The notes: generated by a model from the letters alone, not told the origin. A stretch of DNA of 62,143 bases from Octopus sinensis (GCF_006345805.1 NW_021832247.1:1-62143); one strand, 5' to 3'; shown: positions 141-60,235, counted from the stretch's first letter. Made by a program: numbers and translations.

Positions 141-220
141 TATATATTATATGTATATACATACATACGTACATACATACACACACGCATACATACATGC
201 ATACATACATATATATATAT

Positions 221-614
221 CTTTTACTTGTTTCAGTCATTTGACTGCGGCCATGCTGGAGCACCGCCTTTAGTCGAGCAAATCGATCCCGGGACTTATT
301 CTTTGTAAGCCCAGTACTTATTCTATCGGTCTCATTTGCCGAACCGCTAAGTGACGGGGACGTAAACACACCAGCATCGGTTGTCAAGCAATGCTAGGGG
401 GACGAACACAGACACACAAACATATACACACACACTTATATATATGTACTTATATACGACAGGCTTCTTTCAGTTTCCGTCTACCAAATCCACTCACAAG
501 GCATTGGTCGGCCCGGGGCTATAGCAGAAAACACTTGCCCAAGATGCCACGCAGTGGGACTGAACTCGGAACCATGTGGTTGGTTAGCAAGCTACTTACA
601 ACACAGCCACTCCT
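221..614 (-). mobile_element. SINE family A, near full length (tRNA-like head, internal CA/TA microsatellite)
   Basis: Reverse complement starts AGGAGTGGCTGTGT (box A-like) with GAGTTCAGTCCC (box B-like); collinear with other copies in the window. Confidence 0.92.
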
Positions 615-8996: not shown

Positions 8997-9347
8997 CACT
9001 CTTTCACTCTTTTACTCTTTTACTTGTTTCAGTCATTTGACTGCGGCCATGCTGGAGCACTGCCTTTAATCGCGCAACCCGACCCCGATACTTATTCTTT
9101 TGTAAGCCCAGTACTTATTCTATCGGTCTCTTTAGCCGAACCGCTAAGTAACAGGGACATAAACACACCAGCATCGGTTGTCGAGCAATGCTAAGGGGAC
9201 AAACACAGACACACAAACACACTCACATACATATATATATACATATATACGACGGGCTTCTTTCAGTTTCCGTCTACCAAATCCACTCACAAGGCTTTGC
9301 TCGGCCCGAGGCTATAGTAGAAGACATTTGTCCAAGGTGCCACGCAA
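8997..9347 (-). mobile_element. SINE family A, lacking most of the tRNA-like head
   Basis: Collinear with family A copies; short (ACTCTTTT)-type tail repeats. Confidence 0.9.
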
Positions 9348-32591: not shown

Positions 32592-32994
32592 CTCTCTTTC
32601 TCTTTTACTTGTTTCAGTCATTTGACTGCGGCCATGCTGGAGCACCACCTTTTAGTCGAGCAAATCGACCCCGGGATTTATTCTTTGTAAGCCCAGTACT
32701 TATTCTATCGGTCTCTTTTGCCGAACCGCTAAGTGACGGGGATGTAAACACACCAGCATCGGTTGTCAAGCAATGCTAGGGGGACAAACACAGGCACACA
32801 AACACACACATACATATATATATACATATATACGACGGGCTTCTTTTCAGTTTCCGTCTACCAAATCCACTCACAAGGCATTGGTCGGCCCGGGGCTATA
32901 GCAGAAGACACTTACCCAAGATGCCACGCAGTGGGACTGAACCCGGAACCATGTGGTTGGTTAGCAAGCTACTTACCACACAGCCACTCCTGCG

Positions 32995-32997
<3 letters not shown>
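32592..32997 (-). mobile_element. SINE family A, full length, between (TA)n tracts
   Basis: Complete head GGCGCAGGAGTGGCTGTGTGG on the minus strand. Confidence 0.95.
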
Positions 32998-42291: not shown

Positions 42292-42900
42292 TGAATGAAG
42301 ACACAATTGAGATCGTTCATCTTTTGTACAGGTTTGTTCTACCGCTCACAAGGTGTTCAAAAGTCATCCTAAACTCTGCTTTTGCATACCAGGTTACGGG
42401 TTTGGGAACAGAGTACCTAACCGTGTATCAGTTCGTGTAGGGTTGCGGTTTCTCTGTAGTGTATATGACCTGACAGAACACTAGGAAACCAATAACCGTA
42501 AGATGTTAACCATACTTCACAAAATATTACGTCACATAAGATATTTTTGAGGTATTTCAAATTATAGTGTCTGAGTCCATCTTTCGCTTAGTTTCACGCA
42601 ACCATGTAATTACAGGGTACCTTTAGCAAGCTGTCAGACCAGATGTCCACCCCTGCGTTAATTTCCTGGTTTCGTCCTACTCTTCGTGGAATGCTGGAAA
42701 TAATGAGAGTCAATGATGTTTTTCATGTCGACTAAACAGTAAAGCCAATATCTTAACTACGCAGTTTATGTGGACCTTTGATTATTACAGTGCGGTGGGG
42801 AAGACATTTTAAATTTTTGTAACGTGCCTGAAAGAAACAGTAGATAGAAGTTGACGGAAATGCAGATCCTATATTGAAGTTATATGTCTCAGAATATGTA

Positions 42901-43065
42901 GTCGCAGGAGTGGCTGTGTGGTAAGTAGCTTGTTTACCAACCACATGGTTCCGGGTTCAGTCCCACTTCGTGGCACCTTGGGCAAGTGTCTTCTACTATA
43001 GCCTCGGTCCGACCAAAGCCTTGTGAGTGGATTTGGTAGACGGAAACTGAAAGAAGCCCGTCGGA

Positions 43066-43126
<61 letters not shown>

Positions 43127-43342
43127 TGTGTGTGTGTGTTTGTGTGTCTGTGTTTGTTCCCCTAGCATTGCTTGACAACCGATGCTGGTGTGTTTATGTC
43201 CCCGTTACTTAGCGGTTCGGCAAAAGAGACCGATAGAATAAGTACTGGGCTTACAAAAGAATAAGTCCCGGGGTCGAGTTGCTCGATTAAAGGCGGTGCT
43301 CCAGTATGGCCGCAGTCAAATGACTGAAACAAGTAAAAGAGT
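42901..43342 (+). mobile_element. SINE family A, full length
   Basis: Head with TGGCTGTGTGG and GGTTCAGTCCC, internal (TA)(GT) repeat, 3' GAAACAAGTAAAAGAG. Confidence 0.95.
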
Positions 43343-44164: not shown

Positions 44165-45692
44165 TAAAATTTTGATTAGACTGAATCAGAAACTATTTAA
44201 ATACAAAACAGATGTAAATCATAATATATTAAAATGTAGCCAGAATGAAGCGAAAATGAGATAAAACAAACCAGAAAATAGAAAACGAAAGATGCGTTAA
44301 GCATTAATATGACTACAATGGGAATATATTGAAATGCTAACAAGATAAAAGTCAGTATAAATTAAAATATTTACTAGACTAAAACACTAATAGATTAAAA
44401 TATTAAGTCAAGTACAATGAGATTATTTTAAATAGTAACTTGACTATAAATATTATTGCGCAAAATGCTAACTAGACTACAGGCGATGTTAAAATATTAA
44501 TACGAATACAGCAGAATAGATAAAGAATACTAACTAGAATCTGAATAGATTAAAATATTAAGTAGAATAAACGAGAAACTGTTATCATAGTCACTAAACT
44601 ACTTCCAAAATTACTAAAATACTAACCAGGATAAAAGCACAATTGATGGAAATGGAAACAATATTAAAATCTGAACTGATTGAAATGTTAACGTTAATAC
44701 AATCTTAGGTTAAAAACTAACAACTCTACCATCAGAATAGTCATATACTAACAAGAATCTAATATTGACTCACTAACACGCCAACAGCCACGAGGTTTTC
44801 AGACACTAACCCAAATAAAAAAAATAAATCCACAATGGACTAAAATATTAACTATATTAAAACACAATTGATTAACATATTAAATAAGCTGCAAGGAAAT
44901 GAAATAAAATTGTATTCATATCCAAATATAGATTTCTGTAAAATACTACCTAGACTGGTTCAGATTGCATTGAAATTATAATTAGACTATTGTCAAAATA
45001 CGTTAAATCTCTAACCCAGAGTACGACTGAAATATATTAGAATATTAAAATGAATGCAACTACAATTCGTTAAATATTTACACCACTATATATGGCCTAG
45101 ATTATAATGCTAGCTGACTACAGACAGAATAGATTAAAATATTAACTAGACTAAAACTAGAATACAGTAATGTCTTTCATCGAATACAATCGGAGTACTT
45201 TAAATATTATCGAGAATAAAACTAGAATTTGTGAAAATGATGAATACGATTCACAAATGACGTTTTAAAATAGTAACCATGGTTCAGATAGATTTGATTA
45301 GTGTAGTAACCTGAGTAAATGGTGAATAGATAGATTAAACTAATAAGTATAATACAAGCAAATAATACTGTGTAATAACTAAATTAAAGTAATGATTGTT
45401 TAAAATACCAAGTCGACTACAAGAGGAATAAATACTACACTGACAATAAACAAAATAGTTTGTAACGTGCAAAGCGGAAAACAACAAGAATTTATTAACA
45501 TGTTTAACTAAATTCACATAGAGACGATTCAAATACTACTTGTTACATAGAAGGTTCAAATACCCATAAGTTAAGTAAGAAACAGATGATAGGTTTAATA
45601 GTTCATCATTTTGGCTAGACTACGACATTAAGTGGATTACAATCGGAATAAACGAAAATATTGATTAGACTGATATTACAATATATTAAACG
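44165..45692. repeat. Old degenerate ~33-bp tandem satellite
   Basis: Recurring AATAGATTAAAATATTAACTAGACTAAAACTAG-like units (clearest near 45128, 44389, 44545). Confidence 0.75.
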
Positions 45693-45898
45693 TGACTTAG
45701 GCACAGGCGTGGCTGTGTGGTAGGAAACTTGCTTCCCAAACGCATTGTTCCGGGTTCAGTCCCTCTGTGTGGCACCTTCGGCAGCCGTCTTCTACTATAA
45801 CCTCGAGTCGACCAAAGTCCTGTGAGTGGAATCGAGAGCCGGAAACTGAAAGAAGCCCGTCATACATGTATATACATATACTTAGTATATACATGTAC

Positions 45899-45951
<53 letters not shown>

Positions 45952-45994
45952 CACATACACAAACTCACTCACACACATACATTCATATATCTGT

Positions 45995-46034
<40 letters not shown>

Positions 46035-46313
46035 CAACATTGAGGGCAAAATTAATTAATTATTAATCAATTTCACCAAGTGTTCAGTATGCAAAGGGAC
46101 CATTCAAGGCAAATTCAAATTATTACATTATATAAAAGGCTTAGTAAAATAAATTACTTCGCCGCATACTGAACTCATTAGAAATAGCAGCTAAAAAACT
46201 TTTTTAAAGCTATTTCTAATACTTAAAGAAAATCTCTCTCATATATAGTGTTGGCAATTCAACTCACAAAAGTTGGGGGTAAGGACATCGAAAAATCAAA
46301 TGCTAAGGTTATT

Positions 46314-46365
46314 TGAGAACGTACGTTTCAAGATTAGTCAAAACAACATTTCTATCATCAGCTCA
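46314..46365 (-). ncRNA. Type I hammerhead-like motif, unit 1
   Basis: Reverse complement of the 47625-47676 motif. Confidence 0.68.
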
Positions 46366-46854
46366 GAAATTCCTTGGTTTGGATTTGGAAACACTGAAAT
46401 TAAGAACATACCCTTTCGAAGATCTGCTCGTAACAAACAGTGCCAACAAATTCAAATAAGCAAGCGAAGAATCTCTGTTCTCCTTTCCACCAGCGTGGGT
46501 TAAAATCATCAAACACTATGCTTATTTCGGTAAAATCCGAAGCATTAATCAGAGGGAGATTAATTATAATTTCAACAATTGAGGGCAAAATTAATTAATT
46601 ATTAATCATTTCACCAAGTGTTCAGTATGCAAAGGGACCATTCAAGGCGAATTCAAATTATTACATTATATAAAAGGGCTTAGTAAAATAAATTACTTCG
46701 CCGCATACTGAACTCATTAGAAATAGCAGCTAAAAAACTTTTTTAAAGCTATTTCTAATACTTAAAGAAAATCTCTCTCATATATAGTGTTGCTTAATTC
46801 AACTCACAAAAGTTTGGGGGTAAGGACATCGAAAAATCAAATGCTAAGGTTATT

Positions 46855-46906
46855 TGAGAACGTACGTTTCAAGATTAGTCAAAACAACATTTCTATCATC
46901 AGCTCA
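46855..46906 (-). ncRNA. Type I hammerhead-like motif, unit 2
   Basis: Identical motif 541 bp from unit 1. Confidence 0.68.
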
Positions 46907-47624
46907 GAAATTCCTTGGTTTGGATTTGGAAACACTGAAAATAAGAACATACCCTTTCGAAGATCTGCTCGTAACTAACAGTGCCAACAAATTCAAATAA
47001 GCAAGCGCAGAATCTCTGTTCTCCCCTTTCCACCAGCGTGGGTTAAAATCATCAAACACTATGCTTATTTCGGTAAAATCCGAAGCATTAATCAGAGGGA
47101 GATTAATTATAATTGATTAATTTTGCCCTCAATTGTTGAAATTATAATTAATGATTTTTCGATGTCCTTACCCCCAAACTTTTGTGAGTTGAATTAAGCA
47201 AACACTATATATGAGAGAGATTTTCTTTAAGTATTAGAAATAGCTTTAAAAAAGTTTTTAGCTGCTATTTCTAATGAGTTCAGTATGCGGCGAAGTAATT
47301 TATTTTACTAAGCCCTTTTATATATGTAATAATTTGAATTCGCCTTGAATGGTCCCTTTGCATACTGAACACTTGGTGAAATTGATTATAATTAATTAAT
47401 TTTGCCCTCAATTGTTGAAATTATAATTAATCTCCCTCTGATTATGCTTCGGATTTTACCGAAATAAGCATAGTGTTGATGATTTTAACCCACGCTGGTG
47501 GAAAGGGGAGAACAGAGATTCTTCGCTTGCTTATTTGAATTTGTTGGCACTGTTAGTTACGAGCAGATCTTCGAAAGGGTATGTTCTTATTTTCAGTGTT
47601 TCCAAATCCAAACCAAGGAATTTC

Positions 47625-47676
47625 TGAGCTGATGATAGAAATGTTGTTTTGACTAATCTTGAAACGTACGTTCTCA
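47625..47676 (+). ncRNA. Type I hammerhead-like motif, inverted arm
   Basis: TGAG-CTGATGA-T-AGA..TCT-T-GAAA-CGTACG-TT-CTCA; palindromic stem III ACGTACGT; stem I extends by AAGG/CCTT; stem II is weak. Confidence 0.68.
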
Positions 47677-48544
47677 AATAACCTTAGCATTTATTTTTCG
47701 ATGTCCTACCCCCAAACTTTTGTGAGTTGAATTAAGCAAACACTATATATGAGAGAGATTTTCTTTAAGTATTAGAAATAGCTTTAAAAAAGTTTTTAGC
47801 TGCTATTTCTAATGAGTTCAGTATGCGGCGAAGTAATTTATTTTACTAAGCCCTTTTATATAATATAATATATATATTATATATATATATATATAATATA
47901 TATATATGCGTGTGTGTGTGTGTGTGTGTGTGTGGGTGTTGTGTGCGTGTGTGGTGTATCTTTGTCTCTGTGATTGTCAGCTACTACTGCTTATCAACCA
48001 GTGTTGGTGTGTATATATCCCTCAACTCAGGGATGTCGTAAATGTACCGATATAATAAGTACTAGGATTAAAAGTTGTTCTAGTTTCGATTTGTTTAACT
48101 AAAATCCTTCAAGTCATTGCTCCAACATGGCCGCAGTGAAATGAATGACAGAATTAAAAAAATAAAAGATAAAAGAAGGAGGTCGCTTAGTTAAATACAA
48201 AACAACAATTAATGTTTCAAAAAACATGACACCAACAATCCTATTACAAATTTGAATAACGTTTCTCTGTCTGTTAACTTTTTATGTTCGTTAACGCCTC
48301 CTAAGCCGTTAGGGCAAGGAAAACAAAACTCAAATCCCAGGGAATGTGGTAAGGGGTTCTATTTTTTAAGGGCCAATGACCCCCATATTTCTACTGTATT
48401 TTACACTAAATGCATGGCATTGGCGATCAATTCGAAGATATGACAATGAATTTCATCTCATGAACTCTTAGGGAATATCGTAAGGCGGTGCAATTTCTGA
48501 AAGCCTGCTTAAATGAGGTCCCCACAGGTCCCCTCCTCTTTCCC

Positions 48545-48947
48545 TCTCTTTTACTTGTTTCAGTCAGTTGACTGCGGCCATGCTGGAGCACCGCCTTTAA
48601 TCGAGCAACTCGACCCCGGGACTTATTCTTTTGTAAGCCCAGTACTTATTCTATCGGTCTCTTCTTTGCCGAACCGCTAAGTAACGGGGACATAAACACA
48701 CCAGCATCGGTTGTCAAGCAATGCTAGGGGAACAAACACAGACACACAAACACACATACGCATACACATATATATACATATATACGACGGGCTTCTTTCA
48801 GTTTCCGTCTACCAAATCCACTCACAAGGCTTTGGTCGGCCGGAGGTTACAGTAGAACACACTTGCCCAAGGTGCCACGCAGTGGGACTGAACCCGGAAC
48901 CATGTGGTTGGTAAACAAGCTACTTACCACACAGCCACTCCTGCGCC
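48545..48947 (-). mobile_element. SINE family A, full length
   Basis: Complete collinear copy. Confidence 0.95.
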
Positions 48948-49680
48948 TATTTTATTGCATTCATCTCCCCATATTTTTATTGCATTTATCTCGCTCCTAC
49001 GCTTATTGATTAAATTTTGATCAGCATCAGTGCTTAGCACATTTACAGAAGTAAGTTTGGGCATTCTAAATACCTTCATGAAAAGTCAAATCGAGATAAA
49101 GAGTTATAACGAGTACGTTTCAAGTATGGTAGTATGGATGCTTATATTTTGTAGTTTACGAAATGTATGTCTAGGTGTTCCGTTTTCATATTGGTGCTTG
49201 GGCCTTTAGCACCAGAGCTCAATAGTTTTTTTCTACCTGAATACCCTATAAGATTCCCCAAAGACCTCCTCAGAAGCTAGCCTGTGTGCCACTTGGAGGG
49301 CAGCTTCGTGGCCAGAAACTAAACCGTATGTCTTATAGGAAGCTGTAAGTCAAACTAGAGACTAACTGAATGTCTATCGGCAAAGCTAGCAGAAAGCGGT
49401 CCAAGTGTTGCTACACCGACATACTGTTACAGAGATAGAATTCACGTTACATATTCAATGAACAATAAGTTATGGGACATGGGGTTTAGGTTTGGGTACT
49501 AGTGAAGTATAGATATTGAGTGCATGGTTATGGGAGTGCGGATATCTATCGGGAGTTTGAAATGGGGTATCGGATAATTTATACCAGGAGATACATATAC
49601 AATGAATGTGCCCGAGTCCATTATTTCACACAAGGTTAGAGGGCCGCGTAGCTGTCCGATAGTATGGCCAAAGTCCTCAA

Positions 49681-50076
49681 GGCGCAGGAGTGGCTGTGTG
49701 GTAAGTAGCTTGTTTACCAACCACATGGTTCCGGGTTCAGTCCCACTGCGTGGCACCTTTGACAAGTAGTTTCTACTATAGCCTCGGGCCGACCAAAGCC
49801 TTGTGAGTGGATTTGGTAGACGGAAACTGAAAGAAGCCCGTCGTATATATGTATATATATGCGTGTGTGTGTTTGTGTGTCTGTGTTTGTCCCCCTAGCA
49901 TTGCTTGACAACCGATGCTGGTGTGTTTATGTCCCCGTTACTTAGCGGTTCGGCAAAAGAGACCGATAGAATAAGTACTGGGCTTACAAAAGAATAAGTC
50001 CCGGTGTCGTTTGCTCGATTAAAGGCGGTGCTCCAGCATGGCCGCAGTCAAATCACTGAAACAAGTAAAAGAGAGT
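49681..50076 (+). mobile_element. SINE family A, full length
   Basis: Starts GGCGCAGGAGTGGCTGTGTGG; complete collinear copy. Confidence 0.95.
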
Positions 50077-59897: not shown

Positions 59898-60087
59898 ATT
59901 CTTTTACTTGTTTCAGTCATTTCACTGTGGACATACTGGAGCAACGCCTTTAGTCGAGCAAATCGATCCCAGGACTTATTCTTTGTAAGCCTAGTACTTA
60001 TTCTATCGGTCTCCTTTGCCGAACGGCTAACTTACGGGAACGTAAACACACCAGCATTGGTTGCGAAGCAATGTTAGGGGGACATGC

Positions 60088-60134
<47 letters not shown>

Positions 60135-60235
60135 GAACACACACATATATATTCGCCGGGTTTCTTTCAGTTTCCGCCTACCAAATCCACCCACCTCGCT
60201 TTGGTTGGCTCGAGGCTGTAGTAGAATACTCCTGC
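59898..60235 (-). mobile_element. SINE family A, 5'-truncated and diverged
   Basis: Collinear from TTTTACTTGTTTCAGTCA to GAGGCTGTAGTAGAA. Confidence 0.88.

Follow-up and report, generated by a model that had tools for sequence, protein, structure and literature searches.

The stretch of Octopus sinensis DNA analyzed here, hereafter the window (62,143 nucleotides; GCF_006345805.1 NW_021832247.1:1-62143), contains a repeat array of low GC content (31-33%) that repeat search and BLAST/alignment resolve into two head-to-tail units of ~541 bp and two inverted segments (a 39-bp piece and a 712-bp arm), bordered by (TA)n. This agrees with the sequence-only reading of the locus, which had described two tandem units, a 39-bp junction piece and an inverted arm of ~710 bp between (TA)n tracts. 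The features of the locus are the following.

45699..45877, plus strand: head of an older SINE-like host repeat of ~395 bp (positions 6-186 of the intact copy, 82%)
45869..46032: (TA)n target tract on the left side, containing a short CA-rich stretch
46031..46570, minus strand: unit A; the hammerhead-sense strand is the minus strand and the sense 3' end adjoins (TA)n
46314..46365, minus strand: unit A's type I hammerhead motif, cleavage predicted between 46318 and 46317
46571..47113, minus strand: unit B, head-to-tail with unit A
46855..46906, minus strand: unit B's type I hammerhead motif, cleavage predicted between 46859 and 46858
47114..47152, plus strand: junction piece of 39 bp (unit positions 517-543, then 1-12)
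47153..47864, plus strand: inverted arm (unit positions 276-543, joint at 47419/47420, then 1-445)
47625..47676, plus strand: the inverted arm's type I hammerhead motif, cleavage predicted after 47672
47857..47957: right (TA)n tract, then (GT)n; the (TA)n portion is 47857-47907
47944..48159, plus strand: the corresponding tail of the older ~395-bp SINE-like repeat (positions 186-396, 67%), which is colinear with the head
220-614 (minus), 9015-9346 (minus), 32599-32997 (minus) and 42900-43341 (plus): copies of the SINE-like repeat, ~395 bp with inner (TA)n(GT)n
48544-48948 (minus), 49680-50075 (plus) and 59900-60226 (minus): further copies of the SINE-like repeat

Units A (aligned over 46033-46570) and B are 97.6% identical, and unit B matches the inverted arm in reverse at 47152-47419 and 47420-47870 with 98.2% identity (BLAST/alignment); BLAST found no further copy of the unit elsewhere in the window. 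The left arm of the array consists of 2.0 units read leftwards on the hammerhead-sense strand and the right arm is read rightwards, the two standing head-to-head with both sense 3' ends facing outward into (TA)n. Both outer ends lie at TA-like unit sequence, which is weaker on the left, where the end falls in an AT-rich quasi-palindrome, and amounts to 8 nt on the right, where the inverted arm terminates in TATATAAT, common to the unit and the (TA)n tract. The 39-bp piece is flipped at an AT-rich quasi-palindrome, overlaps the left arm by ~5 nt and is, in flipped orientation, the stretch expected next after that arm. Both arms traverse the head-to-tail joint in the alignment and, when they are read end to end on one template, the sole gap between them comprises unit positions 446-516, a close fit that by our estimate would arise by chance in roughly one of five cases. 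A 44-nt hairpin (46716-46759 and its copies, unit positions 356-399) and several shorter stem-loops lie 3' of the hammerhead and are candidate binding sites for an enzyme. Within the left (TA)n tract, the CA-rich stretch 45945-46000 differs from the intact host copies, which have GT only downstream of the TA tract, and may be a small inversion that arose at insertion.

The array contains no ORF of at least 100 aa, and ARAGORN found no tRNA. An open frame of 69 codons before the hammerhead scored with none of 58 candidates and with no Pfam family; its lone representative match was rejected as a repeat-summed artefact with no pairwise alignment. Since a frame of 77 codons arises by chance in 192 of 1000 shuffles, the 69-aa frame is of chance size, and the unit can be considered non-coding, as had been claimed. 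An RT plus GIY-YIG ORF between the repeats was not present in the 8 frames scanned, out of the 66 listed plus the unit's own, and no partner PLE ORF was found or linked in the window, the run contigs, or the prokaryote, metagenome and viral collections.

The unit also occurs in sequencing runs, being present in 20 of the 24 runs listed, spanning six organism codes and ten studies. Contigs from four of the 20 positive runs, abbreviated as X1, X2, X11 and X15, were aligned to 46835-47425, a segment comprising one unit and the centre of the array, with 7570, 1707, 12 and 54 contigs aligned, respectively; in X11, a run of 4.4 Mb, coverage reaches 29 of the 30 bins. The 541-bp unit is thus an abundant repeat family, with the proviso that summed depth is not copy number. 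The head-to-tail joint (47114-47418) has a depth of 19.8 in X11 (2 contigs), against a mean of 19.8 in the adjacent bin, and is found also in X15; in the latter, a probable RNA run, the joint could stem from a tandem transcript as well as from a circle. Because this joint is present and few contigs leave for unlike sequence (shares of 0, 0, 0.06 and 0.15 across the four runs), the unit mostly closes on itself.

These data bear on the unlikely alternative that the unit is the pLTR of an autonomous PLE and the locus a truncated remnant of stacked pLTRs, with no independent retrozyme lineage. PLE insertions are indeed heavily 5'-truncated and can comprise a pair of direct pLTRs together with an inverted one (PMC8557442, PMC3846280), and 31 recently active PLE families have been reported in Octopus vulgaris, in a paper the main text of which mentions no hammerheads, ribozymes or retrozymes (Bonar 2026). 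Also in keeping with this alternative, a 630-nt contig of X1 matches the unit along 84 nt only (83%), loose contig ends reveal diverged relatives (subfamilies), and the run contigs, mostly of 70-90 nt, would conceal a rare link to an ORF. Against it stand the closure of unit start onto unit end in X11 and X15, the near absence of contigs entering unlike sequence and the chance size of the 69-codon frame, which has no credible homologue.

Among the 15 joints listed, of 18 in the runs, four show unit continuity, one a deletion and ten a passage from an antisense half to a sense half; the last appear to be other head-to-head junctions, of the same geometry as that of the present locus. Several of the ten carry short unit-like inserts, and their breakpoints vary. 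All are single contigs of X1, the library type of which is unrecorded, with sides of 23-28 nt (below the 30-nt flag) and 85% likeness, and none was found in X2 or X11. In the head-to-head joints listed, one breakpoint lies at unit positions 54-262, at or upstream of the hammerhead, and the other at 307-512, downstream of it; same-half inversions, which would be expected about equally often, are absent from the joints listed, and this absence may be due to a filter of the tool or may be real. Three of 12 inversion breakpoints lie no more than 6 nt from the predicted cut (p = 0.02), a post hoc clustering that carries little weight, as nearby variants may shift breakpoints.

The flanks of the array are informative in their own right. 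Using the copy at 49680-50075 as the intact reference, the sequences at either side prove to be the head and the tail of one SINE-like repeat on a shared strand, and the array thus splits an older repeat at its inner (TA)n. The host repeat has seven long copies in the window with 80-94% identity, and its spurious translation has as its only match a predicted protein of Argonauta hians (Octopoda, 80%). Since both ends of the array lie inside (TA)n, comparison of the flanks leaves a target-site duplication (>4 bp when present, by the retrozyme criterion) unreadable. Two heads of the SINE-like repeat (45698-45879 and 48768-48949) form an 82% inverted pair around the array and are a second source of dsRNA upon read-through. 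Directly left of the locus, at 44170-45690, an AT-rich and strongly AT-skewed repeat of ~28-30 bp is present in degenerate form.

The split host repeat also weighs on whether the inverted arm or the duplication could be an assembly or library artefact, either a foldback chimera or a mis-join within a high-copy repeat. The copies differ mostly by single-base indels, as previously remarked: unit A differs from unit B by 4 substitutions and 10 indel columns, and the inverted arm from unit B by 1 substitution and 11 indel columns. These many one-base indels, together with broken microsatellites, indicate a noisy consensus, and no contig bridges the centre of the locus among the 32 of 9424 pieces listed. 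Nevertheless, we regard an artefact as very unlikely, because the sequences on either side are not mirror images but two colinear parts of a single host repeat, and because the arm does not mirror the copy next to it. Its segment 47420-47864, where a foldback would mirror unit A, is instead B-like at the private sites of unit A (88-89, 138, 173, 299, 319-321 and 436) and agrees with unit A at position 106 alone, where A bears the family-wide letter. The asymmetric centre with its templated 39-bp piece and the similar joints in another data set argue in the same direction.

All four copies, moreover, carry the allele G47292, which in the runs is rare (0.2% of summed depth in X1, 1.3% in X2 and none in X11 and X15), and its sharing indicates that the copies stem from one source. 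Unit A holds four of the five private changes (p = 0.03), an excess more readily explained by a template whose units differed slightly than by a single circle, even if errors or later mutation could also have produced it. The same excess, as if unit A were older, and the length of the left arm, almost exactly 2.0 units, would suit a different history, in which a monomer was inserted first and the array was later built in DNA by unequal crossing-over together with a template switch that occurred at the quasi-palindrome during replication; local amplification via unequal crossover has been proposed by Li et al. (10.64898/2026.07.22.740005). We rate this history as the least probable of the alternatives considered and highly improbable, since the right arm terminates separately in TA-like sequence (unit position 445), traverses the head-to-tail joint and is B-like where a DNA foldback would have copied unit A, and since head-to-head joints recur in the family at varied breakpoints.

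The hammerhead was then analyzed at the level of its sequence pattern. CTGATGA-N25-GAAACGTACGT has three matches in the window, at 46319-46361 (minus), 46860-46902 (minus) and 47629-47671 (plus), and none in 100 dinucleotide shuffles. A relaxed descriptor requiring a helix I of 4 bp recovers the same three plus one non-palindromic match at 49273, whereas in 30 shuffles it gives 0.17 matches per window, none with a palindromic helix III. The claim that each complete unit carries a hammerhead with palindromic stem III therefore holds for all three motifs. Rfam covariance models returned no hammerhead at the gathering score (0 matches) or at E<=10 (7 unrelated weak matches), and the motif is thus recognized by descriptor only. 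Its core is intact (C3-A9, G12-A14, A15.1-U16.1, with U as H17). Helix I has four pairs and may be extended by a distal helix; helix II begins with a U.U at its 10.1/11.1 base, followed by 3 bp, an internal loop and 3 bp; helix III consists of two pairs closed by GUAC. The palindromic helix III region, ACGTACGT, would form a duplex with a calculated energy of -9.8 kcal/mol. The predicted cleavage site is GUU and the position proposed for it, after 47672, had been read correctly. GUU is cleaved more slowly than GUC.

Variation within the family extends to the core, for the change U4C accounts for 38% of summed depth in X1, 53% in X2, none in X11 and 17% in X15; at least four more variants affect helix II and loop II among the variants listed. 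At 49101-49115 (minus), 12 nt agree with the hammerhead's 3' half; this match, missed by the relaxed descriptor and with no 5' core upstream, is either a decayed relative or due to chance. Outside the octopus sequences, the exact pattern has no match in the metagenome and prokaryote contigs and a looser pattern none in the viral collection. The 14 metagenome loci obtained with the looser pattern were dropped, none being unit-like (the best had one 16-nt match) and 12 of 14 having a helix I of no more than 2 bp. Two metagenome loci, L001 5001-5049 and L009 101-149, show a hammerhead-like pattern with a 6-bp helix I (including G.U) and a palindromic helix III; they are unrelated to the 541-bp unit.

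Cleavage by the ribozyme is plausible but probably weak. The predicted cuts, from 46858 to 46318, delimit a monomer of 541 nt, which as a circle would be 67% paired with a fold z of -5.7 relative to 60 dinucleotide shuffles. The 91-nt motif region has a predicted MFE of -11.9 kcal/mol as an inhibitory hairpin burying GAAA versus -2.6 for the constrained active fold, while Li et al. use an MFE below -5 as a criterion (10.64898/2026.07.22.740005). By these calculations, the active fold would lie above the GAAA-burying fold by ~9 kcal/mol in the 91-nt motif and by 20 kcal/mol in the dimer. In the B+A dimer the double hammerhead (-265.5) is predicted to be favoured by 5.6 kcal/mol over two single forms (-259.9), against an MFE of -285.8. 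Natural variants of helix II would improve the active fold only from -2.6 to -4.9.

Read-through of the array is predicted to form a stem of 702 bp, pairing 46127-46839 with 47152-47864. Full read-through would pair the hammerheads with their own antisense, so that the proposed monomer of ~540 nt and the long dsRNA, both retained as predictions, would need different transcripts. A promoter was not located in the unit; the sequence TATATAT (unit position 328) is located downstream of the hammerhead, and a promoter at that point would leave only one cut site at this locus.

Signals compatible with dsRNA formation come from run X15, which is by guess RNA, none of the positive runs being recorded as such. 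T>C changes account for 26 of its 41 changed places, compared with 5 of 26, 5 of 22 and 2 of 10 in the other three runs. At least 12 of these sites lie on one 194-nt contig, corresponding to A-to-G on the sense strand, and at least five further sites in the other half of the unit correspond to A-to-G on the antisense strand. After removal of five T>C sites that are common DNA variants, a 5' G is found at none of 15 edited sites, versus a background of 16.5% (p = 0.07). The clusters look like ADAR hyper-editing of dsRNA, the source of which need not be the present locus. Editing of repeats is in itself ordinary; octopus has the most hyper-edited reads in the table of a published survey, which also names a lizard Penelope as massively edited (PMC5625713).

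Considering these results together, we interpret the array as one insertion of an abundant 541-bp hammerhead repeat into the (TA)n of an older SINE-like repeat, likely carried out by the RT and endonuclease of a PLE acting in trans, and assign this interpretation a probability of about 0.7. The insertion may have proceeded as follows. A PLE endonuclease would nick both strands of (TA)n, and one of the 3' ends would prime at the AT-rich terminal hairpin of the unit, its extension through 2.0 units giving the left arm. The other 3' end would prime at the internal UAUAUAAU (unit position 445) and yield the 1.3 units of the right arm. The two cDNAs would then be joined head-to-head by microhomology, with a 39-nt templated piece flipped at the quasi-palindrome. 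Since both arms traverse the head-to-tail joint, the RNA that served as template was probably circular or an uncut multimer rather than a linear cleaved monomer. The hammerhead would act, weakly or aided by protein, as a double hammerhead in multimeric transcripts of family arrays, while read-through of inverted copies would produce long dsRNA that is edited by ADAR, with the ribozyme being blocked. In L1 twin priming, two cDNAs from both target strands leave the 5' part inverted, and a small gap marks the point of inversion. The octopus array differs from such products in having no poly(A) tail or L1 duplication and in its probable template, a circle or multimer of the repeat. The literature searched, which covers few subscription papers, contains no account that explains inversions of PLEs or retrozymes by twin priming.

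Biochemical precedent for such steps is provided by the PLE protein of Anolis: at AT-rich sites it cuts and extends the two strands, and it initiates reverse transcription at an internal position (PMC11167929). Its start site is not homologous to the cut DNA, whereas the octopus array ends in TA-like sequence. The Anolis hammerhead cleaves only with the protein and is dispensable for insertion (PMC11167929); of nine predicted Xenopus dimers, one cleaved in vitro (10.64898/2026.07.22.740005).

Several elements of this layout have been documented for PLEs, consistent with the affinity to PLEs and retrozymes that had been suggested. Tandem and inverted 5'-truncated copies, a bias for (TA)n, tails of 30-40 bp and head-to-tail non-autonomous PLEs were described by Craig (2021, PMC8557442); two direct plus one inverted pLTR, arranged head-to-head with palindromic junctions, by Arkhipova (2013, PMC3846280); and pairs of hammerheads on opposite strands 100-700 bp apart, with palindromic helix III and a circle hypothesis, by Cervera (2014, PMC4209133). 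The octopus array shares with insertions of endonuclease-bearing (EN+) PLEs (PMC3846280, PMC8557442, PMC4209133, PMC11167929) the partial tandem, the head-to-head inverted 5'-truncated copy and the overlap at the junction, as well as the AT-rich or (TA)n target, the hammerheads on opposite strands several hundred bp apart and TATATAT in the repeat. It differs in having no ORF between the repeats, and homology to a specific PLE was not found in the prokaryote, metagenome and viral collections. The 39-bp piece has the size of the 30-40-bp terminal tail of PLEs and covers the 3' end of the unit, but is central (PMC8557442). The non-autonomous Chlamys PLEs such as MRC1 are likewise multicopy, head-to-tail and attributed to PLE enzymes; they are green algal and mostly devoid of a canonical hammerhead, and their 3' similarity to autonomous partners has been demonstrated (PMC8557442). 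The minimal PLE hammerhead has G10.1-C11.1, an extra base after A9 and a helix II of 7-8 bp, a combination that the octopus motif lacks; the octopus motif does contain the palindromic 15.2-16.2 region that would allow a dimeric helix III (ACGTACGT; PMC4209133).

The closest known relatives in organization are the metazoan non-LTR retrozymes, especially axolotl HHR_Amex2/Rtz353 and the Mytilus family, which are likewise abundant, non-coding, low-GC tandem units with type I hammerheads (PMC7229834; 10.64898/2026.07.22.740005). The layout definition of Li et al. asks for two or more tandem units in succession that all bear a complete type I hammerhead, and by this definition the array is a retrozyme (10.64898/2026.07.22.740005), its ribozyme function being predicted. 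Other retrozyme traits are present too: no protein coding, a GC content below 50% and a strongly self-paired monomer, as predicted also for retrozyme circles (PMC7229834; 10.64898/2026.07.22.740005). The unit length of 541 nt falls outside the range of 150-450 bp given in one account, in which the units measure 170-400 nt (PMC7229834), and inside that of 51-972 bp given in the other (10.64898/2026.07.22.740005). In HHR_Amex2 as in the octopus unit, helix III is made up of two pairs and a tetraloop, and helix II has a U.U mismatch at its base; the axolotl ribozyme cleaved to 22% as a monomer and better as a dimer (PMC7229834). The octopus array differs in its inverted arm, none being described for retrozymes in the two accounts compared (PMC7229834; 10.64898/2026.07.22.740005), and in its GUU site and predicted blocking of the ribozyme by self-pairing. 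Its cephalopod host is another difference, as the literature searched, which includes few subscription papers, contains no cephalopod retrozyme or hammerhead repeat, although supplements or repeat libraries may list the family. Retrozyme circular RNAs and PLEs as their likely mobilizers were reported by Cervera and de la Pena (2020, PMC7229834), and a 2026 preprint names retrozymes in its title as non-autonomous PLEs and argues for their derivation from pLTRs (10.64898/2026.07.22.740005).

The system is therefore known in kind, PLE-style layout and tandem hammerhead retrozymes having both been published. New, as far as the literature searched shows, are the cephalopod host and the fact that both arms cross from one unit into the next, a feature suggestive of a multimeric or circular template. 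For the origin of retrozyme tandems, one proposal invokes a borrowed RT copying circular or multimeric RNA (PMC4209133, PMC7229834) and another later amplification at the DNA level (10.64898/2026.07.22.740005), the insertion step being demonstrated in neither of the latter two accounts (PMC7229834; 10.64898/2026.07.22.740005). Two opposed, joint-crossing arms within a split host repeat would constitute a footprint that separates these proposals, and a family of such abundance would supply many comparable insertions. A bolder version, which we advance tentatively and consider doubtful, is that the family is a young, very high-copy octopod retrozyme whose 541-nt RNA circle was copied in one step by a Penelope RT dimer from both target strands. 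If this were true, tandem retrozyme arrays would be rolling-circle products written at insertion rather than later DNA amplifications, and the genome would be seeded with long inverted repeats acting as major ADAR substrates and self-silencing ribozymes. The present interpretation of the array would also add cephalopods to the hosts of retrozymes and link a PLE-derived repeat to the heavy A-to-I editing of these animals.
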